Virus record (IMG/VR): IMGVR_UViG_3300025470_000019
Location: 15,102-79,101 of that record
DNA from: a virus
Taxonomy: Duplodnaviria; Caudoviricetes
Length of the DNA stretch: 64,000 bases
Direction: 5' to 3' (one strand)
Below, piece by piece: positions 141 through 38,764 of this stretch (positions are counted from its first letter, which is position 1; the number at the start of each line of letters is the position of its first letter). Under the pieces are notes generated by a model. That model searched no databases and was not told the DNA's origin. It was given only the letters and a program-made list of their open reading frames with translations. The translations under genes and the position numbers were made by a program.

Positions 141-836
141 TTAGCTAACAAATGTCCAACCTTTATGTTGCTTTTGCTTTCCTAGTATGACATACATTAA
201 TTCTTTTGATCCTACTCCAGAATATTGATTAGATAATTCTGATCGTTTGCCAATAAAGATTCCGTGTTTTTCATGGAAAAACTTGTATATGGTTTCGTCT
301 CTAGAAGGATTATTCAATTTCTTTTGTTCTGAAAATTCTTTACGCCGATCATCAGTCCAACTCGCGCGCATAGCCGATTTTGTCGATTCGGATTTACGAT
401 TTCTGTTAATGGTCAAAGCTCTTTTTGCCTTTTCCTTATCAGATTGCGTCCTTCTTAGACCAAAGGTAGGAGAGAGTTCTCCGGACCTACCAAACATAGG
501 GTTGCATTCTCCCGATCTATCGAAATGTTTTCTGTGGGGAAATTTCTTGCCTTTGGCGCAAGGAGGCATTCCGCCTCCAGCCACAATATTCCACCCAATA
601 TTATCGGTCGGTCTTAAATAAAATTCTAATTTTTTTGCTTGATCTTCTGACAAATTTTCTTGCACGATCTTCATCTCTGCGCCTCTTTTGAGCGCAGATT
701 TAACTTTAAAATTAGACTTTGATTGTTTGTGTTCGATTAAACGACGAGTTGGATTTTTACTTATACCAACATAACCGTCAGTTTGAATATTTTCGTGTTC
801 TGGATAATGTATCCAATATACGCTATAAATAGTCAT
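141..836 (-). mobile_element. Free-standing GIY-YIG-type homing endonuclease with NUMOD3-like C-terminus
   Basis: IYSVYWI...GYVGISKNP..R..EH catalytic pattern, basic C-terminal repeats, AT-rich, RBS GAGGAG upstream. Confidence 0.8.
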
Positions 837-910
837 AAGCTGGTGCTCCTCTTAGCATTAGAGTGGTTGGAAGCGGGAACTTCGCGAACCACAATCATCC
901 TTTATTTATA
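837..910 (-). promoter_or_regulatory. Late promoter plus conserved structured endonuclease leader, copy A
   Basis: Minus strand TATAAATA-aaggatgatt-GTGGTT-CGC-GAAG-ttcccg-CTTC-C-AACCAC-TCTAA-TGCT-aagagg-AGCA-cCAGC-tt-ATG. Confidence 0.85.
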
Positions 911-944
911 TAATTCTAACTTTGAACAGAAAGGAGAGACACCA

Positions 945-1887
945 ATGATACTTGCAAAAGCACCCTTACGTGTCAGTTTTTTTCGGTGGTGGGTCGGATA
1001 TTCCGGCTCACTACCTACAGTGGGGAGGCTCGACCATTTCGACAGCGATCGACAAGTATGTCTATGTCGCTGTAGGTAAGACTCCTCAAAACCACATCAA
1101 GGTCAACTACTCCAAGCAGGAACTGGTGACCAAGGTCGACGATCTTCAAAATGAGATTGTCAAAAATGCCCTGAAGTATTTTGGGATTAAGAACAATATC
1201 GAGATTACCACGTTTGCTGACATTCCTACGGTCGGAACAGGTCTAGCAGGTTCATCGGCATTCACCTGCGCATTGGTCGCTGCTCTTGCAGAATATTGCG
1301 GATTCTCTCGTTATAGCGAATATGAGCTAGCCGAGGCTGCTTGTCAAATTGAAATTCTAATGTGTGGTTGGAATATTGGAAAGCAGGATCAGTATGCTTC
1401 GGCTTTTGGTGGCATGAATTATATTCGCTACCTAAGCAGCGATAAGGTTAATGTCAGTAAGATGGATCCCAACGGAATTGATCACAACATGCTGCTGATT
1501 CCGACGAACATTCAGCGCCATGCTGCTGAGGTCTTGAATAAGATCGACTTCAACGACAAGACTCCAGTCATCAGAGAACTTTCTCACATGGCTGATCTCC
1601 AATATCGTTATGAACCTACTCTTGAGCTTTATGGTCCTCTGCTGAACGAAGCATGGAAATATAAGAAACAGATGGAAGGCGGTATCAGCAATCCAGAGAT
1701 TGATGAGATGTATGAGCGTTGTAGAGAGGCTGGTGCGACTGGAGCGAAACTTCTTGGTGCAGGTGGTGGTGGCTATATGCTGGCTCTGACCGACAACAAG
1801 AATAAGATCAGAGCTGAATTCAACGATAGATGTTGCCTCGAAGTAAGAGTTGCTCTTGACGGAGCCAAGGTTGTTTACAAGGATTGA
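945..1887 (+). CDS. hddA: GHMP-family sugar kinase (HddA-like heptose-7-phosphate kinase), interrupted by one extra T in the T7 run at 977-983
   Basis: MILAKAPLRVSFF (945 frame) continues as FGGGSD in the 952 frame; GTGLAGSS, GKQDQYA and GAKLLGAGGGG motifs; RBS AAGGAG. Confidence 0.85.
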
Positions 1888-1889
1888 CT

Positions 1890-2486
1890 ATGACGAAGCC
1901 ACTGATTAAATTTTCCGATTATACCGATGCTGTGTTTGACGCAATGGAGAGTGTAGATGAACATTCTCTTGCTCTTGTTTATCTAACTCTGAACGAAGCT
2001 CGAGTGAACGGAAGAACTATTTTCGTTTGCGGTAATGGTGGTTCGGCTGCTATTGCTAATCACCTTGTCTGCGACTGTATGAAGGGTGTTGCAGTAGATA
2101 CTGGAAATCATATGCATGTGACTTCGCTGTCTTGTAACGTTCCTTTGATGACTGCCATCGCTAACGATATCGGCTATGAGGATGTGTTTGCAAAGCAGCT
2201 AGAATGGCAAGCTGTTCCTGGGGATGTTTTGATCGCGATTAGCTCTAGCGGCAACTCGCCCAATATCTATAACGCACTTCTTTCGGCCAAGGATGTTGGA
2301 GTTAAGACGATCGCGATTTCTGGATTTACTGGTGGACAGGCTTGTGCTATTGCTGACCACTCTGTCCATATTAAGTCAGATAACTATGGTGTGATCGAAG
2401 ACGTATCTCAGTCGGTGATGCATTATATCGCCCAGTGTCTTCGTCGAAATCTTTCCAATAAGAAACCAGAGGACATCATATACTGA
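1890..2486 (+). CDS. gmhA: Phosphoheptose isomerase (SIS domain)
   Basis: CGNGGSAA, TAIANDIGYE.VF..QL, ISSSGNSPN motifs. Confidence 0.9.
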   Translation: MTKPLIKFSDYTDAVFDAMESVDEHSLALVYLTLNEARVNGRTIFVCGNGGSAAIANHLVCDCMKGVAVDTGNHMHVTSLSCNVPLMTAIANDIGYEDVFAKQLEWQAVPGDVLIAISSSGNSPNIYNALLSAKDVGVKTIAISGFTGGQACAIADHSVHIKSDNYGVIEDVSQSVMHYIAQCLRRNLSNKKPEDIIY

Positions 2487-2962
2487 TGAAGAAGATTGAT
2501 CATGTTTTTCTCGATCTAGATGGGGTTGTGTTCGACTTCCATAGCGCAGTCGGCGATCAGCTCCACGATCGAGAAAAATGGTGGAACGAAGGATTCCCAA
2601 ATTTTATCGAGGCTGGTGGCTTCGCTGATCTGCCTCTGCTGCCCGATGCCGAAGAGCTGATGAATTTTCTTAACGAAAACGTATGGGTCACAATCCTATC
2701 TTCAGCTGGCGGGACTCCTAGGTTTGACGAGATCGTTGATCAGAAACTTGAAGCTCTGCACAGGAACGGAATCGAATATCCAGCGATCATCGTCCCTTCC
2801 AAGGGAGTCAAGAAAGATTTTGCGGGCGAGGGTCGCCTCCTGATTGACGACCATCCTGAGAATTGCCAAAACTTCATCGAGGCTGGTGGTGAGGCTATCG
2901 TCCACATCGACGCTGCAACCACGATAGCTCACATCAAAAAACATTACGAATTTTCAAATTAG
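2486..2962 (+). CDS. HAD-family phosphatase / 5'(3')-deoxyribonucleotidase-like
   Basis: FLDLDGV motif I and LLIDD motif IV. Confidence 0.75.
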   Translation: MKKIDHVFLDLDGVVFDFHSAVGDQLHDREKWWNEGFPNFIEAGGFADLPLLPDAEELMNFLNENVWVTILSSAGGTPRFDEIVDQKLEALHRNGIEYPAIIVPSKGVKKDFAGEGRLLIDDHPENCQNFIEAGGEAIVHIDAATTIAHIKKHYEFSN

Positions 2963-2965
2963 TGC

Positions 2966-2994
2966 TTTACCTTTTTTCAAATCTAGGTTAGAAT
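2966..2994 (+). promoter_or_regulatory. Early promoter, copy 1 of 11
   Basis: TTTACC-17 bp (ttttttcaaatctaggt)-TAGAAT; near-identical copies elsewhere. Confidence 0.85.
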
Positions 2995-3026
2995 GAATTA
3001 TAAGGTTGATTGAAAGGAAGTTTGAA

Positions 3027-3371
3027 ATGATCGTCCAAGTTTTCCACTCTGATCGTGAAATCGGTGGTTTCGTGCATGTCGCTGATATCGATGCCCCTGA
3101 GCATTATGATGCGACTCGTGCCCTCGAGTATGCTTTCCGTCGTACTCAGAACATCGAAGGTTCTTGGTCGATGGGTGAAACCATCGAGTTTGATGGTGAC
3201 ACGATTCCTAACATGGACTATGATGCCAGCATCACTGTCGTCCAACCTCTCCGGACTTGGTCTGACGGTCGTGTGATGGGTCATCGTTCTTCGATGATGT
3301 ATGACCGCATGATTGTTGATGGTGAAAACTACGAAGTCGATGCTTTCGGCTTCCGGAAGCTGGAGGCTTGA
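3027..3371 (+). CDS. Hypothetical early protein
   Basis: ORF behind early promoter with GAAAGGAAG RBS. Confidence 0.7.
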   Translation: MIVQVFHSDREIGGFVHVADIDAPEHYDATRALEYAFRRTQNIEGSWSMGETIEFDGDTIPNMDYDASITVVQPLRTWSDGRVMGHRSSMMYDRMIVDGENYEVDAFGFRKLEA

Positions 3372-3373
3372 TT

Positions 3374-3781
3374 ATGACTAAGATTGTTTACAATGCCTGC
3401 TTTGGTGGCTTCGGGCTCTCGCATGAAGCTGTTATGCGTTATGCCGAGATCAAGGGCATCACTCTTTATGTTAATGAGCAGAAGTGGGGTGGTAATGCCT
3501 ACGCGACTGTTCCTTGGGATGAATATGATCGTATTCACGCTGAGTGCAAAAAGGAACGCAACTATCTTCGTGCGAATGAGCTGTATTTCAGCTATAATGA
3601 TATTGAACGCACCGATCCTGCGCTGGTTCAGGTCGTAGAGGAACTTGGCGATGCGGCTAATGGTGCGCATGCTAAGCTGCGTATCAAGGAGCTTTCGCCT
3701 GGTACTCTTTACCGCATCGATGAGTATGATGGAAGTGAGTCGGTGATGACTCAGGATAACTATGATTGGAGTGTTGCGTGA
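3374..3781 (+). CDS. Conserved hypothetical phage protein
   Basis: KIVYNACFGGFGLS...RTDPALVQVVEELG...IDEYDG pattern. Confidence 0.75.
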   Translation: MTKIVYNACFGGFGLSHEAVMRYAEIKGITLYVNEQKWGGNAYATVPWDEYDRIHAECKKERNYLRANELYFSYNDIERTDPALVQVVEELGDAANGAHAKLRIKELSPGTLYRIDEYDGSESVMTQDNYDWSVA

Positions 3782-4185
3782 ACTACGAATTTCCTAACAT
3801 CTACAACATCGATGACGTACTGTGGGCTATCGAAGGTCGCGATGAGTTCGTCGTTGCCGAGAAGGAAGGATACACTGTCATCAACTACAACGTGATGATG
3901 GCTGATACGTTTCCTGATGTGATCATTGATGCTGATCCTTATGATCAAGCTTCTGGTGTGGTTGAGCAGCAGGACTATAACGCAGCAATTCGCCGTGAAT
4001 GTAGAGGTCTGATATTCGACTCGAAGACTGGTGAAATCCTTCGTCGCCCTTTCCACAAGTTCTTCAATGTGAATGAGCGCGAAGAGACTCAGGATCATGT
4101 CATTAATCTGTCGCGTCCTCATGCTATCCAGAAGAAGTGCAGGTTGCTATTCCTGTATTTCGCGTTGGTCAAATGGGTCCACTAA
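3778..4185 (+). pseudogene. N-terminal fragment of an Rnl1-like RNA ligase
   Basis: YTVINY, RRECRGLIFD, PFHKFFNVNE motifs; similarity stops before the KxDG adenylation motif. Confidence 0.7.
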
Positions 4186-4406
4186 GCACCGTTCCGGTGG
4201 AACATATTCATCTTGGAATTGACTGGGACAGCAATACCCTGTTTATTACTCCAAAAGGAGACGAATTGCGCGAAATCAATGTAGACGAGATTTCAGCTAT
4301 CATGAAAAAGTATGACGAACTTTGCTGGACTGAATACAAGATTTCCAAGATCAAGCGTGAAAACGAAGCTCTAAAGAAGAAGTTGAAGGAACTTGAAAAT
4401 GATTAA
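4128..4406 (+). pseudogene. Hypothetical protein, apparently N-terminally truncated
   Basis: Frame PEEVQVAIPVF...GIDWDSNTL opens without RBS, overlapping the ligase fragment. Confidence 0.5.
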
Positions 4407-4653
4407 CTTTGATATTCTTGGTAAGGCTATTAAAGATGTTGCCGGGTATGCTGCAATTGGAGTTGGAGCCGCTTTGGCAGGGATCACATTTGGTGGTTTG
4501 CTTATATACCTTGCAAGCAAATTTGGATTTATAGTTTTCCCAATCATTTGTTGTTTGTTTTTTCTTGGGATGGGCATCGTCTCTCGTTACGAACATCATA
4601 CTAGATTGGATCAGGAATCCAAGAAAAAGATGATGGAAGTTTTGACACGATGA
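4399..4653 (+). CDS. Small two-TM membrane protein
   Basis: Two hydrophobic segments; stop/start coupling with neighbours. Confidence 0.65.
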   Translation: MINFDILGKAIKDVAGYAAIGVGAALAGITFGGLLIYLASKFGFIVFPIICCLFFLGMGIVSRYEHHTRLDQESKKKMMEVLTR

Positions 4654-4823
4654 GTTTCCAGCTTCCGCCCGTAAGATGGGAACCTGTAAAAATACCGAAC
4701 GGTGGAAAAACCACGTTTGATGAAATGCGTGAGGGACTGAGTGAGGAACTTTACCGTCAAGGTGATGCCATTCTTGTTTGGGTAAACGAGGGAGACATAC
4801 TATGGCATACGCTTGCAAAATGA
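4650..4823 (+). CDS. Small hypothetical protein (57 aa, below ORF-track cutoff)
   Basis: ATGA overlap with previous stop; MSFQLPPVRWEP... Confidence 0.5.
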   Translation: MSFQLPPVRWEPVKIPNGGKTTFDEMREGLSEELYRQGDAILVWVNEGDILWHTLAK

Positions 4824-4951
4824 CTAAGGATTAACAATGGAACTACTTAAAGAAAATAGCCACGACCTATCAGAAGTTTCCGCAGAACGTGATAGACATA
4901 TGGCCACATTAGATATATGGTCGCTTGCACGAAAGAGACAGGAACTTGAAA

Positions 4952-5131
4952 ATGACTGAAGATCGGGCAACAGTTCTCCTTAATGCTGTTTTGGAAATCC
5001 TTAACAAGTGCGACGAAGGTCCATATGTTAAGGAATTCTTTGGTGAAACTGCTTTTTATGATGGTACTGATTGTGATGGATATTGTCTAAAAGACGATAT
5101 CGAACATTTTTTGGAGTATGGTGATGCCTAA
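4952..5131 (+). CDS. Small acidic hypothetical protein
   Basis: ORF in co-oriented early cluster. Confidence 0.6.
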   Translation: MTEDRATVLLNAVLEILNKCDEGPYVKEFFGETAFYDGTDCDGYCLKDDIEHFLEYGDA

Positions 5132-5591
5132 GTGCACAATTCTTGTTGGTGTTCCTGGTTCTGGTAAGTCCACGTGGCTCCAGCAACAGAACGTCGATCG
5201 TGGTGTAGTTGCCTCGACCGATAATGTCATTCAGTATCTGGGTGATCATTTCGGATTTGAATACAACGAAATCTTCAGCGAGACTATCCGTTTTGCTGAC
5301 ATGGTCATGGTTCGGCGTATGATCTATAATGCTGAATGCGGTCGAGACATCTATGTCGATCGTACCAATATGTCGGAGAAATCTCGTCGTCAGTTTATCA
5401 ACAAGCTGAAGAAGTATGGCTACGAGTTTGAGTGTGTGGTATTTCCGACTCCTGAACCTGAGGAATGGCAGCGTCGACTGAATTCGCGTCCTGGCAAGAC
5501 CATTCCTCAGGAAGCTATCGATCGTATGGTCAACAGCTATGAGATCCCTCTTGAGTCTGAAGGGTTCTCAAAAATTACGGTGATCAAATGA
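5118..5591 (+). CDS. P-loop kinase (AAA_33 / polynucleotide-kinase-like)
   Basis: Walker A GVPGSGKST; VDRTN; RLNSRPGK.IP lid. Confidence 0.8.
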   Translation: MVMPKCTILVGVPGSGKSTWLQQQNVDRGVVASTDNVIQYLGDHFGFEYNEIFSETIRFADMVMVRRMIYNAECGRDIYVDRTNMSEKSRRQFINKLKKYGYEFECVVFPTPEPEEWQRRLNSRPGKTIPQEAIDRMVNSYEIPLESEGFSKITVIK

Positions 5592-5869
5592 ATAAGCAAA
5601 GAGTCGACATAGACAACTCCTTTGATTTTGGCTTCAGCACAGTTTCTGAAATTGATCTGAAAAACCGAGAAAATGCTGTAGCCAAGCAGGTTCACGAGCA
5701 GGTCTCTAAGAATGCTCAGAGCAAGGTGGATCGGATGTATAAGATGATTATGCCACTGCTCGAGAATCTGAAAAAGGATTCGGAAACGAATGAGTATATC
5801 TATTGGCCGAAACGTGCCGAGATCATCGATCAGTTTATCGACAAGCTCGATGATCTGATTGCTGAATGA
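5588..5869 (+). CDS. Conserved hypothetical T4-like protein
   Basis: FDFGFS...MIMPLL.NLKK..EYIYWP.R pattern. Confidence 0.7.
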   Translation: MNKQRVDIDNSFDFGFSTVSEIDLKNRENAVAKQVHEQVSKNAQSKVDRMYKMIMPLLENLKKDSETNEYIYWPKRAEIIDQFIDKLDDLIAE

Positions 5870-5870
5870 A

Positions 5871-5895
5871 AAAGGGGAGCCAAGAGCTCCCCTTT
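5871..5895. terminator. Bidirectional intrinsic terminator
   Basis: AAAGGGGAGC-caaga-GCTCCCCTTT between convergent genes; identical copy at 15756-15780. Confidence 0.85.
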
Positions 5896-5896
5896 C

Positions 5897-6043: not shown

Positions 6044-6074
6044 AATTTTCTCCGTATTTTTCAAAAAATAATGC

Positions 6075-6103
6075 TTTACCTTTTTTCAAATCTAAGGTAG
6101 AAT
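6075..6103 (+). promoter_or_regulatory. Early promoter, copy 2
   Basis: TTTACC-17-TAGAAT with conserved spacer. Confidence 0.85.
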
Positions 6104-6134
6104 GTATTTATAGTGATTGAAAGGGAAAAATGAT

Positions 6135-9571: not shown

Positions 9572-9884
9572 TTCATTCTTTGAACCAGAAATGGTGAACG
9601 AAGTCCAGACGCTGGATGAGAAGATCAAACAGCGTAGGACGCAAATGCTGATACATTCCTATCGGTATTATGTCCTAGACGACCCTGTGATCACTGACGA
9701 AAAGTGGCAACAGTGGGCTGATGAGTTGGTCGAGCTTCAAAAGCGAAAGCTGAAGATTGGCTTCTACGATAAAGAATTCTCTGACTGGACTGGTGCTACT
9801 GGAATGCATCTTCCATTCGATAAGTGGATTAGAGACAAGGTAAAATACCTAAATAAAATATCAGTTGTTGACAATCAACAATAA
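9561..9884 (+). CDS. Protein resembling the N-terminal domain of NAD-dependent DNA ligase
   Basis: HSYRYYVLDDPVITDEKW...ELVELQ pattern. Confidence 0.65.
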   Translation: MTLDSFFEPEMVNEVQTLDEKIKQRRTQMLIHSYRYYVLDDPVITDEKWQQWADELVELQKRKLKIGFYDKEFSDWTGATGMHLPFDKWIRDKVKYLNKISVVDNQQ

Positions 9885-10217
9885 AGGCGGAAAGACTGGG
9901 GTTCGACTCCCCACACCTCCACCATCATTCATTACCTTTGTGGTGCCTGCTGGGCAGCAATGGCTTTCTCGGTTACTCGTAAGTGATCATAACGGTAACT
10001 GTGGATAGTGAAAAGGTCTCCTAGCGCAAGGAGATACCCAACGTGATGGATGATGATGGGGGTGAACTGGGATCGATTTTCGTGTAATAGGGCGATCGAG
10101 ACTGATTCGGTGGTCGAGCGACCAAAAACAATAAATGCTAACGATAACGAAAGCATTGCTCTAGCTGCATAAGCTAGACTAGGGTTCGGTGGGTACCTCG
10201 TAACAGAAACCCACCAC
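9862..10217 (+). ncRNA. ssrA: Permuted (two-piece) tmRNA: acceptor piece ends CCA at 9924, coding piece starts at 10058
   Basis: T-arm GGGGTTCGACTCCCC plus CACCTCCACCA precede GGGGGTG; the strands form an acceptor stem with G3.U70; tag ANDNESIALAA-stop at 10137-10172. The 5' end is approximate. Confidence 0.9.
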
Positions 10218-10221
10218 TTAT

Positions 10222-10258: not shown

Positions 10259-10290
10259 GATAAATAAAACATAAGGATAAGATATGTTTT
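10259..10290 (+). promoter_or_regulatory. Late promoter with RBS/ATG-sequestering hairpin
   Basis: gATAAATA overlapping AAAACATA-aggataaga-TATGTTTT; the stem covers the ATG and the loop holds the RBS. Confidence 0.75.
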
Positions 10291-10919
10291 ATACAATATA
10301 TTCGATAACAAATTTATCAGATGGCAAAATATATATCGGAAAGCATAAAACCAATAATTTAGATGATGGTTATATGGGTTCTGGTACACTGATTCGTAGA
10401 GCCATTTCTAAACATGGTATCGAAAACTTTAAAAAAGAAATTTTATTCGTTTTCGATAACAAAAACGAAATGGACTTAAAAGAAAAAGAATTAGTCAATG
10501 AAAATTTTGTTTTGTCTACGTTAACCTACAACTTATCTTTAGGTGGAAAAGGTGGGTGGAATCCTAGTAAATCTAAAGTCGCATTTCTTGGAAAAAAGCA
10601 TTCCGAAGAAAGTAGAAAACGAATAGGTGAAGCTAGTAGGAATAGAATTCATTCACCAGAATCCAAAAAGAAAATGAGTGATTCTCGTAGGGGTGTCTCA
10701 AAACCCAATACATCTATTTCTCTTAAAGGAAAAATGAAAACAGATGAACATAAAAAGAAAATAAGTGAATCGCTGAAAAATAGAGATCCTAAAAAAGTTC
10801 CTAAGGGTTATAAAAGAAAATCTAAACAGATATGGATCAATAACGGAGAATATTCTACCAGAATTAACTCAGAGTTGTTGATTCCAAACGGATTCATCAA
10901 AGGAAGATTAAAGAAATAG
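10284..10919 (+). mobile_element. Free-standing GIY-YIG (Seg-like) endonuclease with NUMOD3 repeats, in the tRNA cluster
   Basis: TIYSITNLSDGKIYIGKH, YMGSG, KHSEESRKRI and HSPESKKKMS repeats. Confidence 0.85.
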
Positions 10920-10920
10920 T

Positions 10921-10996
10921 TGCTCTCTGGTGCAATTGGCAGCACGTCTGACTCTGACTCAGAAGGTTCCAGGTTCGACCCCTGGGAGAGCATCCA
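10921..10996 (+). tRNA. tRNA-Gln(CTG)
   Basis: Cloverleaf; TCTGA-CTCTGAC-TCAGA anticodon arm; U1-A72; encoded CCA. Confidence 0.9.
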
Positions 10997-13919: not shown

Positions 13920-14516
13920 TTAGTCTAACTGGGATAGATGTTTATTTGATTTTAGATGTCTATCCCAGTTCATACTACCTTTAATAGACCTTGCACAAAC
14001 TTTACAATGATTAACAACCCTATTTTTTGCGGACTCTGATAATTTTTTCTTTGTTGCTTCTGAATGTTTAATTCCAACCGTTCTTTTTAGGTTCTCATGA
14101 ACAGGCTTGCCTTTCAATCTATTTGATCTTTCTTTCTTGGCCTGTTCTGAGTGTTTACATCCTTTTGGTTTTCCTTTTATCATTGGCAAACCAAGGACGA
14201 GTCTCACTTCGTTTGTCATGCCCTTTGTGTGGCTCCAAGAACCGTGGCCTCCAACTGTCATGTTATACGTGTCATCTCTGCGTATAAAGGCATCATTGAC
14301 AATCTGAGATTCTTTCAGATACATATCTTCTTCGGAATCCAAATAAAATAGTATTGTTTTTGTGAAAGATTCTACACCATATTTTTTTATAGCGGACTTT
14401 ATTGCGGTTCCTGAACCCATATATCTATCTTGTGGATTATGCGTTTTATGTGAACCTACATATATTTTATCATTGACTTTATTTTTGACTTCATATACAG
14501 TATAATAAATAGGCAT
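13920..14516 (-). mobile_element. Free-standing GIY-YIG endonuclease with NUMOD3 repeats and C-terminal Zn finger
   Basis: TVYEVKNKVNDKIYVGSH, YMGSG, HSEQAK/HSEATK, CKVC...H...H. Confidence 0.85.
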
Positions 14517-14586
14517 GCTGATTCTCCTACCATAGAGTTAGAGTGACTGGATACAGGAATATCGCGAGTCACATAAAATTATTTAG
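14517..14586 (-). promoter_or_regulatory. Late promoter plus conserved structured endonuclease leader, copy F
   Basis: CTAAATA-attttat-GTGACT-CGC-GATA-ttcctg-TATC-C-AGTCAC-TCTAA-ctctatggtaggagaa-tCAGC-ATG. Confidence 0.85.
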
Positions 14587-14609
14587 TAAAACAAGACTAA
14601 ATAACGAGC

Positions 14610-14870: not shown

Positions 14871-15290
14871 ATGGCAAAAGCAATTCTTGAAGAAATTGAA
14901 TTCAAAAACGATCTTGGTCAGACCATCAAGCCTGGAGACGAAGTCGTAATTGTTACCACTGGCTATAGCCATAGCGTTTCGACCAACAAGGGAACATATG
15001 TTGGCATGGTCAATGGTGGCGCATCTATTGTAAAGCAGGTCAAGACTTCTTACTATGCATTTAAGAGTAATGGCGAGAGGGTTCCACGCTCTTGGTGGAA
15101 TGAAATGTATGCTGAACAGCGTGCCTTGGTATCAGATGGACGCAATGCTGATAAAAACTATCGCTACTGGGCTGATCCTCAATATAAGGAAATTCAAGAG
15201 AAGCGTTATGCTCTTATCGAAAAGAAGTATGAAATCTTCCCACGGAAGACGACTCTGAAACTGAACCGAGCATATAAGCTCGCAGCCTAA
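14871..15290 (+). CDS. Hypothetical protein
   Basis: ORF with AGGAG RBS. Confidence 0.7.
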   Translation: MAKAILEEIEFKNDLGQTIKPGDEVVIVTTGYSHSVSTNKGTYVGMVNGGASIVKQVKTSYYAFKSNGERVPRSWWNEMYAEQRALVSDGRNADKNYRYWADPQYKEIQEKRYALIEKKYEIFPRKTTLKLNRAYKLAA

Positions 15291-19547: not shown

Positions 19548-20139
19548 TTCTTGAATCCTTCCAAACGGTGCTCGTTGATGCTTTCTGGAATTTCTGCGTT
19601 GGTAGAAACAAAGCAGTGTCCCAATCTTTCGGTTCCACATAAATGAACCTAGACTTAACTTGATTGGTCAAATAATGTTTAAAGCATGGCTTAAACAGAG
19701 CCAAATTCGAAGCACCTTTCAAAGTCTGGTAGCTGATATTTAGTTTGGTTGAGTCATCATATTTTTGATTATTCGTTACAGTGTATAACGCATCCATAAG
19801 ACGAGCTCTTAATACTGGCTGGAGGTAATGTAGGTTCAGACCATAGAACCCATTATCCGCTGGACCAACCATAAAGATTAGAGGGAAAGCGTCCCAGTAT
19901 GGTAGTTTCTCTTTGTGTTTGGCATCATAGACATACATATACATACGTCCAGGAAGAACCTTGTCCGAGAGAGTCGCACCCTCAAAGAACTTATTCTGTT
20001 GGAGTCTTGGTCCTCTGTAATCAGCAGCTTTTCTACGGAACCAATCTCGAGCATCTTTCGTTTTGTTTGGCACAATGTTCTGCGCAGCCGCACGTTTGAG
20101 CACGCTGCTATAGACATATTGTTCGGTTGTTTGTGCCAC
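19537..20139 (-). CDS. gp2: DNA end protector gp2
   Basis: PGRMYMYVYDAKHKEKLPYWD.FPL, GLNLHYL, FKPCFKHYL. Confidence 0.9.
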   Translation of the reverse strand: MAQTTEQYVYSSVLKRAAAQNIVPNKTKDARDWFRRKAADYRGPRLQQNKFFEGATLSDKVLPGRMYMYVYDAKHKEKLPYWDAFPLIFMVGPADNGFYGLNLHYLQPVLRARLMDALYTVTNNQKYDDSTKLNISYQTLKGASNLALFKPCFKHYLTNQVKSRFIYVEPKDWDTALFLPTQKFQKASTSTVWKDSRSGF

Positions 20140-20152: not shown

Positions 20153-20216
20153 TATAAATAGATGGTAGTCGCGGATGGCGGTCCCACTACCACTAATACT
20201 AACTGGAGTATCAGCT
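20153..20216 (+). promoter_or_regulatory. Late promoter plus conserved structured endonuclease leader, copy D
   Basis: TATAAATA-gat-GGTAGT-CGC-GGAT-ggcg-GTCC-C-ACTACC-ACTAA-TACT-aactgg-AGTA-tCAGC-t-ATG. Confidence 0.85.
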
Positions 20217-20765
20217 ATGATATATTTATATATTAAACAACACCAAAAAACTGGTCTGAAATATTTCGGAAAAACCGTAAAAGCCAATCCATTCAAATAT
20301 AATGGTTCAGGCAGTTATTGGTATAAACATCTAAAAGAACATGGAAAACACATTAGAACCATAGAAATATGGGGGTTCGATGACCAACAGTTGTGCACAC
20401 AATTTGCTTTAAAATTTTCTAAAGACAATAATATAGTAGAATCTAAAGAATGGGCGAATTTAGTCCCTGAAGATGGTATAAGTGGAGGCAGCATCGGTAG
20501 CCGTAAAGGAAGAAAATTATCAGAACAAACAAAAGCAAAAATGTCTAAAACTAGAAAAGGATACAAATATGGTCCTGAGTTTGCAGAAAGATTTAGACAA
20601 AGATTATTAGGTGTTCCTAAAACTGAAGAACAAAAACGCAAAATGCGCTTGGCAAAATTAGGCAAACCTCAATCCGAAGAACACAAAATGAAACGATCGG
20701 AAGCTATGAAACGAGCACACGCTATTAAAAAGTTATCCCTAAATCTTTCTCAGTTACGATCTTAA
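20217..20765 (+). mobile_element. Free-standing GIY-YIG-variant endonuclease with NUMOD3 repeats
   Basis: IYLYIKQH..TGLKYFGKT, YNGSG.YW..HL, WANL.PE.G; true ATG at 20217 after GGAG. Confidence 0.85.
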
Positions 20766-28816: not shown

Positions 28817-29188
28817 TTAACGCGGCGCTTGCCTCGACACAGTAGTTGAATGTATCTTTTGCGCCTTAAAGTATTTTTGAAATATATCCTGAACCAAATC
28901 AGAATCGTATGGCTTACAAGAAAATATATCTACATAAGCAGAATTTCTATCTGCAGGACAAAAATGAGCTGATACATTAGAGTCTTGCAGAAGCTGATAG
29001 ATAGAATAGCCTATTTTATTTGGATCGTTCGTATCACACCAGATAATATTAAGATTCCCAATTTTAACCATTTCAATAGATTCCAAAAGATCATCAACAA
29101 AGGTCTGAAATACTTGTTTGTCCATAATAGCAGATGAATCACATTCTGCGGCATCAATCATTGTAATCCAACCCCATGGCTTGCTCAT
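28817..29188 (-). CDS. S-adenosylmethionine decarboxylase proenzyme-like
   Basis: G.S.YQL..DSN.S.HF.......Y.DIFSCK.YD pattern. Confidence 0.65.
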   Translation of the reverse strand: MSKPWGWITMIDAAECDSSAIMDKQVFQTFVDDLLESIEMVKIGNLNIIWCDTNDPNKIGYSIYQLLQDSNVSAHFCPADRNSAYVDIFSCKPYDSDLVQDIFQKYFKAQKIHSTTVSRQAPR

Positions 29189-29206: not shown

Positions 29207-29271
29207 CTAAATAAAAGTGGTTCGCGATGTACCACCATCCAACCACACTAACGTCACTGGAGACAATCAGC
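29207..29271 (+). promoter_or_regulatory. Late promoter plus conserved structured endonuclease leader, copy C
   Basis: CTAAATA-aaa-GTGGTT-CGC-GATG-taccac-CATC-C-AACCAC-ACTAA-cGTC-actgga-GACaa-tCAGC-ATG. Confidence 0.85.
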
Positions 29272-29916
29272 ATGATTATTTATCTTTATGTAAAACGCCA
29301 TAAAATTACTGGTCTGAAATATTTTGGTAAAACCATACAAAATCCATGGATTTATCCTGGATCGGGCAAATATTGGAACCGACATCTAAAAGTCCACGAA
29401 AACAATGTTGAGACTATAGAAGTTTGGGGATTTGACGATCAAATTTTATGTTGTGAGTTTGCGCAAAAATATTCAAAATTACATAATATCGTTGAATCCA
29501 AAGATTGGGCCAACCTCATTCCGGAAACAGGAACTGATGGAGGATTTACTACATCTAGAGAACAACAAAAGAAAATTTGGGAAAATTCAGCTTTGCGCGA
29601 AAAACACCATAACAGCATAAAACGCTCATGGACTGAAAAACGAAAAGTGATCGCTTCAAATAATACATCAGAACAATGGAAACGTCAGGATAAATCTTTA
29701 ATAGCAGAAAAAATGGTCAAAACCAAAAAAGAAAAATACCCTGACGGTAATCCAAATGTGGGCGTTTATGTAAGAACGGAAGAAATTAAACACAAAATGA
29801 AACTTGCGGCTAAAGAACGAGATTTAATCAAGATAGTTTGCGAACAATGTTCGAAAGAATCTAATAGATCTAATTATGCTCGCTGGCACGGATCTAATTG
29901 CAAAACTTTACGCTAG
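29272..29916 (+). mobile_element. Free-standing GIY-YIG-variant endonuclease with C-terminal Zn ribbon
   Basis: IIYLYVKRH.ITGLKYFGKT, YPGSGKYW.RHL, WANLIPE.G, CEQC...RWH..NC. Confidence 0.85.
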
Positions 29917-32953: not shown

Positions 32954-33263
32954 CGTTATCAGGATTGTCGATCATCAATTCAATTTCAATTTCTTCGTCT
33001 TTGATAATCTGTTTAGCAAGTTCTTGAAAGGGATGCTCGACACCAAGGCATGAGCAAATAAATGACTCCATAGCCTCGAGAAAGAGAATCATCTCTGGTG
33101 TTTCCATCATATGCGATGGATCAATACCCATGTCATCTAAATCATTAACAATATCGTTAGCAAAATCGCAAGTCAATTGGTGAGCATAATCAGTGTTATT
33201 AAAAGCGAGGGTTGCTTCTTTCTCTTTCTTCTTTGAGACAAAATCAACCACATTGTTTGCCAT
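32943..33263 (-). CDS. Hypothetical protein
   Basis: NVVDF...; acidic; coupled to neighbours. Confidence 0.65.
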   Translation of the reverse strand: MANNVVDFVSKKKEKEATLAFNNTDYAHQLTCDFANDIVNDLDDMGIDPSHMMETPEMILFLEAMESFICSCLGVEHPFQELAKQIIKDEEIEIELMIDNPDNDEE

Positions 33264-34342
33264 TAGGTCACCTTCAGGAGAATAGTTTCAGAATTAATCC
33301 TACCGTTCAAAGGAGAACCAGCAGTCTTCACTGTATCTAGGAACTTTCTGAGACCTACCTTACCCAAGCCAAAGAATTCCTTCAGCTGCTCCTCCGGCTT
33401 GCGCAGGGTCTTGCTGATAGACAGCTCAGGGTCGAAGCCAGTGACCGAAGTCCCCTTGACCATGAATCCCTTTGGCGCATTGCTCTGATAGAAGCCGATG
33501 CGTCGGGTCTTGGTGTTATAGACCCATAGCTGGGTTGCCCCGATGATCGACTGAGGATTGACCGAGGCGAGCTTCAGAGCCGAGTCAGTGGGCTGATACT
33601 TGAGCCACTTGACCAGATCGGCGGCTGGCTTAATCTTGATCGCCTTTGGCGCACGAACCTTGACCACCTTCTTATTATTGAGGTAGCGATCAAAGTCATG
33701 CATCATATCGCCATAGACTTTTTGCCAAAATTTGAGAGTCTTGCCGTAGCTTTCCTTGACCTGCTCATCACCAGACATAACTTCGTCATATGACCGCTTG
33801 TAGAAGTCTCGAAGAGTGTTAGCAGCCTGAACCGAAGCCTGCTTAGCTGTAAGGAAGTTATACATGCTAAACTCTGCGTTCTTGTCGAGTTCTTCTTCAG
33901 CATCACAGATCATATTGTCGATGTTACGCTTAATGCGATCCTGGATCGAGATGACGTTGGTCTTGACGGTCGGCTTGACTTCCTTGACGCCATGGCGAGC
34001 AAGCTCAGCGACCCTCTCGTTGAAGCGAGCCATGTAGGCTTCATTGAAGGTAGTCCCGTTAAGCATCATACGAGCCATCCAGCAGGTGGTCGTCGGAGTC
34101 CGCCACTCAATGGCAGAACGGATGTCGCGGATCAACTGAGGGTCGCGCCCATCCTTCTTGAGATATTCGATGAGCCAGCTCTTGCCCTTAGTCATGTCGG
34201 ACATGTAGTTATACCAGTTGAAGGCATCCATCAACTGGGATTCGGTCGCCGAGCCGACGATGATAGGTTCGTCGCCATAATGTTTCTGGTCAAAGCTCTT
34301 GACCTGAGTTCTGGTTTTGATTTTCTTAGCTGCTTTGGCCAT
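33263..34342 (-). CDS. Conserved T4-like hypothetical early protein
   Basis: FNWYNY, LWVYNTKTR, SKTLRKPEEQL, NGRIN..TILL. Confidence 0.75.
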   Translation of the reverse strand: MAKAAKKIKTRTQVKSFDQKHYGDEPIIVGSATESQLMDAFNWYNYMSDMTKGKSWLIEYLKKDGRDPQLIRDIRSAIEWRTPTTTCWMARMMLNGTTFNEAYMARFNERVAELARHGVKEVKPTVKTNVISIQDRIKRNIDNMICDAEEELDKNAEFSMYNFLTAKQASVQAANTLRDFYKRSYDEVMSGDEQVKESYGKTLKFWQKVYGDMMHDFDRYLNNKKVVKVRAPKAIKIKPAADLVKWLKYQPTDSALKLASVNPQSIIGATQLWVYNTKTRRIGFYQSNAPKGFMVKGTSVTGFDPELSISKTLRKPEEQLKEFFGLGKVGLRKFLDTVKTAGSPLNGRINSETILLKVT

Positions 34343-34367
34343 TTAAAGTCTCCATTCCTTATTATTC

Positions 34368-34396
34368 ATTCTAACCTAGATTTGAAAATAAGGCAA
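34368..34396 (-). promoter_or_regulatory. Early promoter, copy 9
   Basis: TTGCCT-17-TAGAAT with conserved spacer. Confidence 0.8.
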
Positions 34397-34413
34397 GTGA
34401 AAAATTCTTTTGA

Positions 34414-34482
34414 TATAAATATGAATGTGGTTCGCGATGCGTCAACATCCAACCACTCTAACGCTTACAAGGAGCATCAGCC
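34414..34482 (+). promoter_or_regulatory. Late promoter plus conserved structured endonuclease leader, copy B
   Basis: TATAAATA-tgaat-GTGGTT-CGC-GATG-cgtcaa-CATC-C-AACCAC-TCTAA-cGCT-tacaagg-AGCa-tCAGC-c-ATG. Confidence 0.85.
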
Positions 34483-35034
34483 ATGGCTATTTATAGAAAA
34501 ATCTACGAACGACATTTTGGACCAATCCCTAAAGAAGAAAACGGTCGCACTTTCGAGATACACCATATAGATGGGGATCGGACTAATAACAGCATCAATA
34601 ACCTTAGATGCGTTTCCATTGAAGAACATTATAATATTCATTACGCCCAACAAGATTGGGGTGCATGCGGGGCGATCGCACAAAGAATGAATTTGTCGTT
34701 GGACAAAATTTCCAATCTAAGAAGCAAACATGCATTAGCAAGAGTAGCCGACGGAACAAATCCATTCTTAATCCTAAGTAAAATTAGATCTGAAAATGGA
34801 ACTCATAATTGGATGACTGAACAACATTCAGAAAAAACAAGAGAGCGCCAAATTTCTAGATTAGAACTCGGGGATCACGAATTTTGTAAACGATCTGTTT
34901 GCCCTTACTGTGATAAGGAAGGGCAGTATGCCGTAATGGCCAGATGGCATTTCAATAATTGTAAATTGAATCCAAACTACACATCAAAACCCAAAAGAAA
35001 ATATAAAAAGAAACGGCTGAATCAGACCACCTAG
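34483..35034 (+). mobile_element. Free-standing HNH endonuclease with C-terminal Zn ribbon
   Basis: EIHHIDGDRTNNSINNLRCVSIEEH; CPYC...RWHFNNC. Confidence 0.85.
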
Positions 35035-35100
35035 GGAATTTACTTCTCATTTAAGAGAAACCCAATATACGAACGTCCATTCGAGATTCAGCCGCTCAGT
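35005..35100 (-). ncRNA. Candidate ~90-nt ncRNA under an early promoter
   Basis: 10-bp terminal stem CGGCTGAATC/GATTCAGCCG enclosing two hairpins, then a U-rich tail; no ORF with RBS. Confidence 0.55.
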
Positions 35101-35106
35101 AAACTC

Positions 35107-35135
35107 ATTCTAACCTAGAATTTTAATTAAGTAAA
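35107..35135 (-). promoter_or_regulatory. Early promoter, copy 10
   Basis: TTTACT-17-TAGAAT. Confidence 0.8.
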
Positions 35136-35214
35136 GCATTAATATGCCAGCTCATAGAAGCGAAGACCACAAGCCACACGCGAACGGAGCAGCTTGGCGC
35201 GGAATACAATAGGA

Positions 35215-35724
35215 CTAAGCACCCTCGCCTACGAACCAAGGCTTAGTGGGATCGTGGCGAGTAAGCCACTTCTGATAGAGCCCTACTTCCATGCCATATG
35301 CGATAATCTCCCAAGGGCTGTCAAAATAGTGGTCCTCATTGCGCTTGGGCTTCCAGATCTCGCCCATCCAACGGCTGGTCATCTTCAGCCCACCCTTGGT
35401 GGGGATCATGATGCCTCCCTGCAGCTCATTCTTAGCATGCTGCTTCACATGAACCATCTCGTGACCGAGGGTCTTGATCATTTCCTCAATGTCCTGCTTG
35501 CGCAGCCCGATGGTGAACCAGCGAGGGTTGCGGGTGCCTTCCTCGTCGACGCACTCGCCCATAACATCAAGGGTCTTGCTCACCTCAATGTCGATATTGA
35601 GATTGCGGACCAAACGTGGATCCATGAGCTGAGCTGCAAAGAAGCGAGCAGCCTCCTCCAGCTTTGCCTTATCGCGCTTGCCGAGACCAGTGACCGTGAG
35701 ATTCATATCAGACTCCATTCCCAT
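35215..35724 (-). CDS. HExxH metallopeptidase-like early protein
   Basis: TLGHEMVHVKQ...PWEIIAY. Confidence 0.7.
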   Translation of the reverse strand: MGMESDMNLTVTGLGKRDKAKLEEAARFFAAQLMDPRLVRNLNIDIEVSKTLDVMGECVDEEGTRNPRWFTIGLRKQDIEEMIKTLGHEMVHVKQHAKNELQGGIMIPTKGGLKMTSRWMGEIWKPKRNEDHYFDSPWEIIAYGMEVGLYQKWLTRHDPTKPWFVGEGA

Positions 35725-35729
35725 TCCTC

Positions 35730-35758
35730 ATTCTAACCTAGATTGGAAAAAAAGGAAA
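35730..35758 (-). promoter_or_regulatory. Early promoter, copy 11
   Basis: TTTCCT-17-TAGAAT. Confidence 0.8.
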
Positions 35759-35785
35759 GCATTATCTTTGGTACAAATCAGTGAG

Positions 35786-37594
35786 TTAGGCTATCGCAGT
35801 AACAAAGGTGTTGTTTGCGGTTCCGTCCAGACAAAAATACTTGACATACATTGTGTTATGAGAACTGAGATAGAACGACGATCCGCCTGTGGCTTGTGTT
35901 GAGGCAACACCATGATTAAACTGCTGAGTTCCGCCAACATTATTGAAGATAAACAGTTCAACAGATTTTCCGGCAGTCAGGTTTTGGAGATTGGCAGTAA
36001 CTGTGCCTTGGTTTGTGTGAATATGAACAAAGTTATCTGTCGAGAAATCGATCAATACTGTGTTCGAAACTACGTTAGCAATTCTAACATTAGGAGCTTT
36101 GTATGCTGTATTTTGGTGAGAACCATCAGTAAAAGTAATGCCAGCATTTGAATTTGGGTTATTAACAAAACTCATTCCATTCGCATAAAATGCAACTGTT
36201 TCGTTTTGTATGGTGTTGGAACCTGTAGGCGTCAACTGGAAAGTAATTTTTGTTCCTGTATTGGCAGTATAAAAATCTTCGGCTGCCATCATATTGATGC
36301 GTCCAATAGAACCAGCGTATGTGTTACCGTCGGCTGTCCATCCTTGCATACTCATACGAATAATCGTGTCGTTTGCTTGAGTTTGTGTAGGCGAAACAAC
36401 AGTTCCGCGTGCTCCGCGCCCAGCAATTGCTGCGTAAGTGTTTGGGCCAAACGCATCAATACTGATACGAGCGGGTTGACCATCTTGCGCCGTTGCTTGT
36501 AATAATGTGCCATTATAGTTGCGCGGTTGCGCTACGCCAGAATTTGATCCAACAATAGATAGAGCAGAGTTCGTAGTTAATATTGTATTTGGAGTATGAA
36601 TCTGCACTTGACCGGTTCTATCGACAGCAAATGTGGGATTAGAATTTGTTCCTGTAGAATAAACAACAATAGGTCTATTGATAACAAGATTACCAGTAGC
36701 AGCAGTAGAACCAATATAGAATACTGCATTCGAATCTGTAAGACCAATAAAATTGTTTTGTAGTAAGAAATTACCTACTCTAAATCCAGCATTTGATTGT
36801 TCTGAAGTATTTGCTGATGTTGAGATGAAAAATACACCATTTGATACAGTCAATCTTTGATCTGGATAAGATGTATTTTGATCAGAGAAAATAATTGAAT
36901 TTGAGCCAACCCACATCGATTCCCAACGATTTGTTGTGTTGCCAAGAGAATATACTCCATTTGTGCTAGGAATAATACTTGATGGGACATGCAGCCAGTC
37001 AACAGTAGTGGTAACATTCGCGAATTCAAATTTCTTTACGTCAGTATTATAACGCAGAAACATATTGTTTGCGATACTGTTTCTGTCAACGTCATCAAGA
37101 TATCTCAGCTTGACTTCACCACCACCAGCAACGACTCCTGAAGCATTGCGGGCAAACCTATGCAGGTCAGCCAGAGTCTTCTTCATTAGGTCTATTTCTT
37201 TTCGAATACTATTCGGAATAGAATCGGTCTTGGCTACATATTCATCACGAGGAATCTTGGACAGAAGTTCAACTGACTTGGTGATTATATCTTTCTGTGG
37301 AAACTGTGGCATTGGCTGAGCACCAAGAGGAATAGCAACAGGCTCCTCGAGGATGATAGGTTCGACAAACTCATCCATTGATTCAACCAGAGCTTCGTGT
37401 AGGGATTCACTCTGCTGCTCTGTGATAATGGCTTTTTCTAGCTGTATCTCTTCGGGAGTGGGAAGTGCATCATTACGTTTGAGGTATTGTTCCAGTGCAC
37501 TGGCAGTCTGCCTGCGTTGTTGATCCGCAAGCATCTTTTCCTCATGCTTCTGTCTCGCAGCTCTGATACTTTCTAGGAAGATGTTATCTTTCAT
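35786..37594 (-). CDS. Virion/tail-fibre-like structural protein
   Basis: GGGEVKLRYLDDVD motif, beta-rich N/T/S/G body, late promoter (TATTTATA at 37622). Confidence 0.6.
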   Translation of the reverse strand: MKDNIFLESIRAARQKHEEKMLADQQRRQTASALEQYLKRNDALPTPEEIQLEKAIITEQQSESLHEALVESMDEFVEPIILEEPVAIPLGAQPMPQFPQKDIITKSVELLSKIPRDEYVAKTDSIPNSIRKEIDLMKKTLADLHRFARNASGVVAGGGEVKLRYLDDVDRNSIANNMFLRYNTDVKKFEFANVTTTVDWLHVPSSIIPSTNGVYSLGNTTNRWESMWVGSNSIIFSDQNTSYPDQRLTVSNGVFFISTSANTSEQSNAGFRVGNFLLQNNFIGLTDSNAVFYIGSTAATGNLVINRPIVVYSTGTNSNPTFAVDRTGQVQIHTPNTILTTNSALSIVGSNSGVAQPRNYNGTLLQATAQDGQPARISIDAFGPNTYAAIAGRGARGTVVSPTQTQANDTIIRMSMQGWTADGNTYAGSIGRINMMAAEDFYTANTGTKITFQLTPTGSNTIQNETVAFYANGMSFVNNPNSNAGITFTDGSHQNTAYKAPNVRIANVVSNTVLIDFSTDNFVHIHTNQGTVTANLQNLTAGKSVELFIFNNVGGTQQFNHGVASTQATGGSSFYLSSHNTMYVKYFCLDGTANNTFVTAIA

Positions 37595-37673
37595 ATCAAT
37601 TCCTTTAGGGGATATCCGGTCTATTTATAATTCCCCAGCACAAACCTAAATATAAGAAACTGCGGAGACATGA

Positions 37674-38078
37674 ATGGCCAATTCACCGATTCAACAACAG
37701 ACATTCTACTCGGATTTTCTCTTTGACTTCAAGAGGAATCCTGCCACTCATGACATCCTTACTGTAACAAATGAGCAGTCTGTTATTAACTCTATCAAGA
37801 AGATTCTCCGCACAAACAATTATGAAGTGCCATACAATCCTCGCTTCGGTGCCAATATTTACCATTATCTTTTTGAGCCATTTACAGAGTTTACACAGGA
37901 TGCGTTAGAGAAAGAAATTACATATGCAATCGAGGCATATGAACCAAGGGCGAATCTAATCAGTGTAACTGTTACTGGCAGTCCTGACGAGAACAGTATC
38001 GACATCACCATTGTTGTGTCGGTAATAAATAATCCAAACCCAATAACAGTTACAACAACACTCAGCAGGATTCGCTAA
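37674..38078 (+). CDS. gp25: Baseplate wedge subunit gp25
   Basis: YSDF..DF..NP...D, SIK.IL.TN..E.PY.P.FG.NI...LFE, YEPR. Confidence 0.9.
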   Translation: MANSPIQQQTFYSDFLFDFKRNPATHDILTVTNEQSVINSIKKILRTNNYEVPYNPRFGANIYHYLFEPFTEFTQDALEKEITYAIEAYEPRANLISVTVTGSPDENSIDITIVVSVINNPNPITVTTTLSRIR

Positions 38079-38688
38079 ACCTGCGTTTCTGAGACTCTCT
38101 CATTTTGAGTTTGGTCTCTTCAGTATGCGGCTTACGTTTCTTACCTTTTTGTGATTCAGATATTTTCTTTCTGGTGTATTCAGAGTGTTTACACCCAGTG
38201 CGAGAATTTCTCATCTTATTTCTTGTCTCTTTAGAAACAATTTTGTTTTTTTGTGATTCTGAATTTTTGAGTTTAGATTCTTCAGACACAGGAGCTCTAG
38301 TTTCCCAAGCTATGCGCATTTTGAATTTTGTTTCCTCAGAGCGTTTCTTTCCTGTTGCCGATTCTCTTATTTTTCTTCTGTGGTCCTCGGATAGTATTGT
38401 TCCATTTGGAGTGCCACTCAACCCATTTTCTTCTATCATATTAGCCCATTCGTCGGACTCAACAATATTGTTCTGTTTTGAGAAATTTAAAGCAAACTCT
38501 GTACATTTTTCTTGTTCATCAAACTCATACAATTCAATTGTGTTGATGTGTTCAATTCCATATTTCTTAACGTGCCTAAGCCAATACTTACCCGACCCTG
38601 TGTAAGTATATGGATTCTCTCTAATAGTTTTGCCAAAATACTTCAGACCCGTTATGGCATGCTGCTTAACGTACAGATAAATAATCAT
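38062..38688 (-). mobile_element. Free-standing GIY-YIG-variant endonuclease with NUMOD3 repeats
   Basis: IIYLYVKQH.ITGLKYFGKT, YTGSGKYW.RH, WANM.EE.G, HSEYTRKKIS. Confidence 0.85.
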
Positions 38689-38764
38689 AGCTGGTTCTCC
38701 TTACTGGGCTAGAGGTAGTGGGTTTCTTGCCGGTCACCGCGACTACCAGTTATTTATATAAATA
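38689..38764 (-). promoter_or_regulatory. Late promoter plus conserved structured endonuclease leader, copy E; palindromic bidirectional late box
   Basis: TATAAATA-act-GGTAGT-CGC-GGT-gaccggcaagaa-ACC-C-ACTACC-TCTAG...GGAGaa-cCAGC-t-ATG; TATTTATATAAATA at 38751-38764. Confidence 0.85.

Follow-up and report, generated by a model that had tools for sequence, protein, structure and literature searches.

The window analysed in this study is a stretch of 64,000 nucleotides (nt; positions 15,102 to 79,101) from the 79-kb contig IMGVR_UViG_3300025470_000019, a partial genome from a freshwater lake metagenome listed in IMG/VR. The contig belongs to a T4-like phage with a GC-content of 43%, and T4-like phages of Caulobacter and Rhizobium are only distant relatives of it. 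Besides gp32, gp2, gp4, gp25 and gp6, the window contains six open reading frames (ORFs), E1 to E6, which have one common upstream leader and are read here as homing endonuclease genes. This leader and the start of the gene behind it form the cassette described below, in which T4-type late promoter boxes face each other across a pair of hairpins, and the conserved form of these hairpins belongs to the strand opposite the nuclease. Matches to PHROGs confirmed the neighbouring genes gp32, gp2, gp4, gp25, phrog_3125, phrog_11903 and phrog_10499, and flanking tRNA genes were identified by Rfam.

The coordinates of all features are given in Table 1. Homing endonuclease domains were found in five of the six products: GIY-YIG in E1 and, weakly, in E2, HNH_3 in E5, and NUMOD3 in E3 and E6; E4 was assigned by paralogy only. 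In E3 and E4 the true start codon is an ATG inside the longest ORF (20217 and 29272, respectively). As the preliminary description of this sequence had stated, all six genes lie antiparallel to both flanking genes (A-> <-nuclease B->), an arrangement with a two-sided chance probability of p = 0.03. It had also reported that each stop codon abuts or overlaps the 3' end of the neighbour, and this holds for four verified neighbours: the E1 stop is separated by 2 nt from the stop of the ORF on its left (138/141), the E2 stop follows the gp32 stop after 1 nt (13918/13920), the last 41 nt of E3 overlap the 3' end of gp4 (20725-20765), and the last 17 nt of E6 lie within native gp25 codons (38062-38078). 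The other two partners found no support. The ORF that overlaps E4 by 4 nt at 29913 has 65 amino acids (aa), a TTG start and no family match, and the candidate noncoding RNA at 35034, at the 3' end of E5, lies in a region where Rfam gave no match at E <= 10.

A larger sample was obtained by running a pattern derived from the leader, with the start codon and the first codons left free, over IMG/VR. At least 120 contigs matched; 101 passed the stem test and yielded 92 unique cassettes, all counts referring to the matches listed. Neighbouring genes in this sample were called by a simple longest-ORF rule. Both flanks were antiparallel to the nuclease in 33 cases and co-oriented in 15 (p = 0.013), and the upstream neighbour alone was antiparallel in 52 cassettes and co-oriented in 26. 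The antiparallel arrangement proposed earlier as general is thus a 2:1 bias and not a rule. Genes of the T4 seg/mob type are co-oriented, with segD as the sole exception (PMC2988022). Tail-to-tail overlap was common, with 31 of 42 convergent neighbours overlapping by a median of 18 nt. Behind about 12 of the 92 cassettes, which are themselves intact, the ORF has just 9-39 aa, and a longer one in a different frame often follows closely (L027, L034, L044, L055, L060, L087, L094, L099, L112 and others); these short ORFs look like frameshifted or decaying nucleases.

A covariance model built from the cassette (R1) found exactly E1 to E6 in the window, and a scan with a relaxed pattern gave just five more true cassette variants beyond E4, amid chance matches. 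The nuclease families headed by the cassette are unrelated, and the uncultured phage contigs that have one number well over a hundred. Searches of the window and the E5 leader by megablast and blastn against 50,697 phage records returned no related cassette from cultured phages. No Rfam family matched the cassette at gathering score anywhere in the window.

In all six genes the first codons contain TATTTAT, which on the opposite strand reads as the late box (N)ATAAATA at the positions given in the preliminary description. Its placement in codons 2-4 fails for E3, where the box spans codons 3-5; in all six, it falls within codons 2-5. Of the motif TATAAATA, which gp55 of T4 reads, the window has 13 copies where 2.8 would be expected, and eight of these copies lie in cassettes or overlap one (the gp6-directed box, 38757-64). 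The same late-promoter motif is found upstream of gp6, gp25, gp4 and gp32. On the outward side, the spacer between the embedded box and the G of a conserved GCUG is 5-7 nt in the window, with a mode of 5 nt in the larger sample (50/78). The T4 late box is located at -13 to -6 (PMC1524935), and with a 5-nt spacer this places position +1 on the G of GCUG. The box of the nuclease itself stands at the same distance from hairpin P1 on the gene strand. With this spacer having a mode of 5 nt on either strand, the cassette is mirror-built, with two candidate promoters face to face. Given the selection on its nucleotides and its promoter-like spacing before a conserved fold (see below), the embedded box is most likely a real outward late promoter. 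In a subgroup (L065, L074, L104), GTCAAAT(C/T)AATTAT replaces the ATAAATA box upstream of P1 and mostly TACTTAT follows the ATG; these phages may use another late-promoter motif.

The codon usage of the larger sample shows that the embedded box is selected at the nucleotide level. TATTTA was present in 72 of the 92 unique cassettes and occurred in three reading frames, MxIY (52), M[IL]F (8) and MYL (10). Its distance from the conserved CAGC stayed at 5 nt (range 4-6), whereas the position of the ATG varied by 0-2 nt. Codon choice was frame-specific: isoleucine was ATT in 52 of 57 MxIY genes (91%; background 0.40, p = 7e-16) and ATA in all six MIF genes (Fisher's test against MxIY, p = 7e-6), leucine was TTA in 12 of 12, and codon 2 ended in T in nearly all MxIY genes (in all of the codons listed). 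Four endonuclease genes of the same contig have no cassette, three of them HNH genes (contig 206-751, 1646-2146, 2936-3433) and one a GIY-YIG gene (window 10284-10919). TATTTAT was found in none of these four, which instead have plain late boxes 25-35 nt upstream. It could be argued that the Ile-Tyr of the GIY motif and an AT-rich codon bias merely happen to spell the box; MxIY does begin most of the genes, and a leaderless MIIY homolog (L146) has ATT TAT as well. Against such a by-product stand the persistence of the motif in three frames with opposite isoleucine codons, the excess of ATT over background, and E5, an HNH gene with the box outside its domain. We regard this explanation as barely credible, and the earlier remark that GIY-YIG protein constraint alone is insufficient is borne out.

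The fold was compared on the two strands. On the gene strand, the outer stem of the leader has eight A·C mismatches and no G·U pair. An 8-bp helix has the CAGC and TCTAA motifs as its two arms; it is broken by A·C on the gene strand and complete, with G·U at these positions, on the opposite strand. There, all six copies in the window fold into two hairpins, P2' and P1', followed by a U-rich tail. Across 98 sequences, the 19 pairs of P2' and P1' were 98.5% paired on the opposite strand, compensatory changes were seen in 12 of the 19, and covariation was 0.517 compared with 0.161 in shuffles; RNAalifold, unaided, returned the same pairs. The same columns contained 198 G·U pairs on the opposite strand, and 6 G·U pairs with 219 non-pairs on the gene strand. 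The outward strand was the more stable in 97 of 98 sequences (-17.6 vs. -12.8 kcal/mol), as was its form of the hairpin at the Shine-Dalgarno (SD) sequence (-7.6 vs. -2.5 kcal/mol). Positions fixed by the search pattern covaried in an independent set fetched by protein similarity (C-G to U-A and G-C to A-U). The fold is thus selected on the strand opposite the nuclease. The predicted outward RNA is a perfect complement of the nuclease SD, start codon and leader, and so combines a conserved, stable antisense fold with complementarity to SD and AUG.

Two details of the fold are constant in all 98 cassettes, namely a G·U pair in P2' (alignment columns 28-60) and, in P1', a G-C pair flanked by two bulged Gs (columns 95 and 97). 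Their invariance suggests contact with a protein or RNase. The tail after P1' contains at least five T in eight positions in 87 of 98 sequences, but in short T runs; a simple intrinsic-terminator scan flagged none of the six window copies, and tail strength was alike in both orientations in the larger sample. Two further candidate functions were set aside: an operator for the nuclease protein, since unrelated nucleases have the same cassette, and sigma-dependent pausing, since the box has the wrong orientation on the mRNA strand.

Table 1. Features of the six cassette-bearing genes in the window (MFE, minimum free energy, in kcal/mol).
Feature	Position	Strand	Remarks
E1 GIY-YIG homing endonuclease gene	141..836	-	231 aa; Pfam GIY-YIG, E 9.5e-07
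E2 GIY-YIG/SegE-like endonuclease gene, NUMOD3 and zinc finger	13920..14516	-	198 aa; GIY-YIG and SegE matches weak, below Pfam cutoff; NUMOD3 weak
E3 NUMOD3 endonuclease gene	20217..20765	+	182 aa; Pfam NUMOD3
E4 paralog of E3/E6	29272..29916	+	214 aa; no Pfam match
E5 HNH_3 endonuclease gene	34483..35034	+	183 aa; starts MAIY; Pfam HNH_3, E 5e-14, domain from residue 5
E6 NUMOD3 endonuclease gene	38062..38688	-	208 aa; Pfam NUMOD3
E1 embedded outward box TATAAATA	824..831	+	codons 2-5 of E1; 7 nt before G of GCUG at 839
E2 embedded outward box AATAAATA	14504..14511	+	5 nt before G 14517
E3 embedded outward box TATAAATA	20223..20230	-	codons 3-5; 84 nt upstream of gp2 GTG at 20139
E4 embedded outward box GATAAATA	29277..29284	-	5 nt before G 29271
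E5 embedded outward box TATAAATA	34488..34495	-	box scan
E6 embedded outward box GATAAATA	38676..38683	+	box scan
E1 predicted outward RNA core, P2' and P1'	839..892	+	complementary to E1 SD and leader; MFE -19.6 vs. -14.9 on gene strand; R1 75.8 bits
E2 predicted outward RNA core, P2' and P1'	14517..14572	+	R1 77.9 bits
E3 predicted outward RNA core, P2' and P1'	20164..20215	-	gp2 SD and start 25 nt further on
E4 predicted outward RNA core, P2' (one bulge) and P1'	29217..29271	-	downstream ATG at 29188, 28 nt further on
E5 predicted outward RNA core, P2' and P1'	34427..34481	-	R1 89.8 bits
E6 predicted outward RNA core, P2' and P1'	38690..38747	+	folding; R1 match
E1 own putative late promoter TATAAATA	903..910	-	
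E2 own putative late promoter CTAAATA	14580..14586	-	
E3 own putative late promoter TATAAATA	20153..20160	+	
E4 own putative late promoter CTAAATA	29207..29213	+	
E5 own putative late promoter TATAAATA	34414..34421	+	
E6 own putative late promoter TATAAATA	38751..38758	-	
E2 second outward box CTAAATA	14597..14603	+	faces hairpin and tRNA genes
Separate gp6-directed box TATAAATA	38757..38764	+	back to back with E6 promoter; 34 nt before gp6 ATG; absent in relatives
E6 insert	38079..38797		719 nt, exactly between gp25 stop and gp6 ATG

Comparison with relatives lacking an insertion, as suggested by the preliminary description, covered E3, E5 and E6 and showed that two of these genes split translationally coupled pairs. 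In relatives the TAA of gp25 abuts the ATG of gp6, and a junction comparison with eight of them defines E6 as an insert. At 21 loci of relatives E6 is absent, and gp25 and gp6 are 0-6 nt apart or overlapping (59 nt in one). The insert supplies the gp6-directed box and a copy of the native SD sequence AGGAT(T/C)C. Positions 38751-38764 read TATTTATATAAATA, which represents two back-to-back late boxes, those of E6 and gp6, with two bases in common; E2 has a comparable pair of boxes 10 nt apart (14580-86 and 14597-603). The closest relatives lack E3, and their gp4 and gp2 overlap by 1 nt as TAATG. No intergenic promoter was found at the gp4-gp2 or the gp25-gp6 junction of the relatives. With the E3 insertion, gp4 has two extra codons (Thr-Phe) before its stop (20725-20733), and gp2 has a GTG start at 20139 behind a new AAGGAA, the relatives having ATG.

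E5 is skipped in contigs of one relative, where 34397 is joined to 35308 or to 35767. The latter join contains nine other letters, and this relative thus lacks both E5 and the 169-aa gene at 35215-35724. An R1 scan of 417 kb of the gp25/gp6 and gp4/gp2 loci of relatives detected no cassette. Four of these loci (L241, L254, L259 and L278) have inserts of 412-682 nt at the gp4-gp2 junction that do not match the cassette model and represent other elements; this junction looks like an insertion hotspot for them. Elsewhere in the window, a permuted transfer-messenger RNA gene of the alphaproteobacterial type (9825-10218, + strand; Rfam, 103.9 bits) hints at an alphaproteobacterial host, and tRNA genes lie at 10921, 11052, 14664 and 14782.

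From this anatomy we propose that each endonuclease gene is headed by a portable, roughly 95-bp cassette in which two T4-type late promoters point at each other. The upstream box would start the nuclease mRNA at hairpin P1. The second box, TATTTAT in the first codons and (N)ATAAATA on the other strand, 5-7 nt before the conserved G, would fire late and start an outward RNA at that G, with the covarying hairpins P2' (CAGC and TCTAA motifs) and P1' in its first 52-58 nt. Like IS10 RNA-OUT or SymR, this RNA may act as a cis-antisense brake on translation of the nuclease. In antiparallel operon insertions, as are all six described here, the outward transcript would probably continue into the downstream gene, which would thereby be given a late promoter and a 5' hairpin leader in place of the coupling broken by the insertion. 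We consider this reading to have an even chance of being correct. A cis-antisense brake fits, by analogy, as the general role, suiting cassettes in both orientations.

The nearest parallel is the RNA-IN/RNA-OUT system of IS10/Tn10 (PMC5006887), in which a nuclease-type gene of a mobile element is likewise faced by an opposite-strand promoter, and a short, stably folded antisense RNA is complementary to the translation initiation region; RNA-OUT exerts control by copy number (PMC5006887). The cassette differs from IS10 in that its genes are phage homing endonucleases and not a transposase, T4-type late boxes serve as both promoters, two hairpins make up the predicted RNA, GIY-YIG as well as HNH genes have the cassette, and the system is here predicted from sequence. 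Similarly, SymR of E. coli is a 77-nt cis-antisense RNA lying opposite the mRNA 5' end of a toxic gene, with its promoter within the symE coding sequence, where it was tested by silent -10 mutations (PMC1891008). The promoters of RNA-OUT and SymR have a counterpart, at the sequence level, in the box within the first codons of all six genes. SymR/SymE differs in being a chromosomal SOS-response locus with sigma-70 promoters that is not mobile and has no downstream gene to feed.

Free-standing seg and mob endonuclease genes of T4, inserted between conserved genes, also carry promoters serving the neighbour, which favours their retention (Edgell, Gibb and Belfort 2010, PMC2988022). They differ from the present genes in being co-oriented, with the promoter on the strand of the gene itself, and no portable cassette or antisense fold has been described for them (PMC2988022). 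T4 segD resembles E1 to E6 in lying antiparallel between genes 23 and 24, but has no known promoter (PMC2988022). In I-TevI, segB and mobE, the hairpin that hides the SD is in the mRNA (PMC2988022), whereas here the fold is on the other strand. In the T4-like cyanophage S-PM2, CfrI is likewise an antisense RNA to a homing endonuclease gene; it differs in its length of about 225 nt, in linking psbA to the endonuclease gene, and in being a single locus and not a repeated cassette (PMC2984593).

The preliminary description had interpreted the outward box as restarting the interrupted operon late in infection, with the nuclease silenced by upstream read-through; the fold would then be a mere 5' leader of the downstream gene. 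Part of this survives: E3 and E6 broke coupled genes with no promoter between them in relatives, and the outward box is best read as a late promoter, whose transcript in antiparallel insertions probably runs on into the downstream gene. At E1, E3, E4 and E5 the embedded box is the sole box facing the downstream gene, gp2 and the neighbour of E4 start 25-28 nt beyond the fold, and 36 of the 52 antiparallel cassettes are followed, shortly behind the fold, by the start of a downstream gene that lacks a box of its own. The 2:1 antiparallel preference and the promoters that T4 seg/mob genes embed for downstream genes (PMC2988022) point the same way. However, the box was kept in 39 of 52 cassettes with an antiparallel upstream neighbour (75%) and in 21 of 26 with a co-oriented one (81%; Fisher's test, p = 0.78), so its upkeep is independent of a gene to drive. 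In addition, the fold is near-perfect in all 98 cassettes in either orientation, E6 and E2 have a separate outward box, and upstream read-through could already feed the downstream gene. Restart as the whole purpose of the box is therefore unlikely. We give a small chance to a scheme without any outward start, in which the fold acts within a long operon transcript antisense to the nuclease, for instance by marking where it is processed or stabilised, and the box is incidental. The operon strand does carry the fold in all six copies, and an RNase or a protein might recognise the conserved G·U and the bulged Gs; co-oriented cassettes, however, keep fold and box without such a transcript, and neither the fixed box-helix spacing nor the frame-independent codon choice is accounted for.

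Folded-strand recombination sites have conserved extrahelical Gs, which those of P1' recall. DNA hairpins also tolerate G·T, and unrelated nuclease families have the cassette in common, as would suit a strand-specific DNA element, either a folded single strand or a protein-bound inverted repeat, serving cassette recombination or replication. However, the cassette has no associated recombinase, homing requires no such site, and a promoter box at T4 spacing on both sides suits transcription, which makes a DNA role quite improbable. A further suggestion of the preliminary description was that the TATTTA codons pair with the TAAATA upstream and so close the leader when transcription reads through. 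In such a T4-style mask the start codon would be covered, and late transcripts beginning within the helix would escape. Late promoters within such masking hairpins are established for I-TevI, segB and Aeh1 mobE (PMC2988022), the two boxes co-occur (67/82 vs. 5/10, p = 0.04), and the MFE structure closes the box-box helix in E5 and E6. Nevertheless, flank complementarity was at chance for the four outer positions (p = 0.40-0.79), and among the four inner ones a single position reached p = 0.02. Compensation was never seen for the variants TACTTAT and TATATAT, and with just 6-7 A·U pairs the helix would enclose 65-75 nt. It is the opposite strand that carries the selected fold, the mRNA SD hairpin is weak, and antiparallel cassettes have no sense read-through to hide. 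An mRNA helix of the I-TevI type, hiding the SD or AUG with its 5' arm upstream of the late start, finds no support in the cassettes. The mask is thus highly improbable and the proposed closing helix is not upheld.

Several observations weigh against the two-promoter antisense reading. The tail after P1', with a mean T run of about 3, would make only a weak terminator for the predicted RNA. The embedded 8-mers are less canonical than the forward boxes, AATAAATA being the commonest, and exact TATTTA is missing in 20 of 92 cassettes in which the fold is kept. Several positions in the set of 92 were fixed by the search pattern, and the cassettes are kin, so the counts do not represent independent events. 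The phage is uncultured, and both the brake and the restart roles derive from anatomy and analogy.

Tentatively, the brake and the restart may be combined in a self-insulating plug, in which a single late transcript directed outward would hold down the nuclease through antisense pairing and at the same time supply a promoter to the uncoupled essential gene. If so, insertion between coupled structural genes would be nearly neutral and clean deletion would carry a cost, amounting to addiction; such a plug would also account for the antiparallel bias and for neighbours that overlap tail to tail.

Homing endonucleases are the main mobile DNA of T4-like phages. To our knowledge, how they spare their carrier is understood in a few T-even cases only. 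A portable two-promoter cassette with a built-in antisense RNA would, if confirmed, be a new general solution to the problem of carrier harm, and would show how coupled structural genes such as gp4-gp2 and gp25-gp6 can be split without killing the phage.

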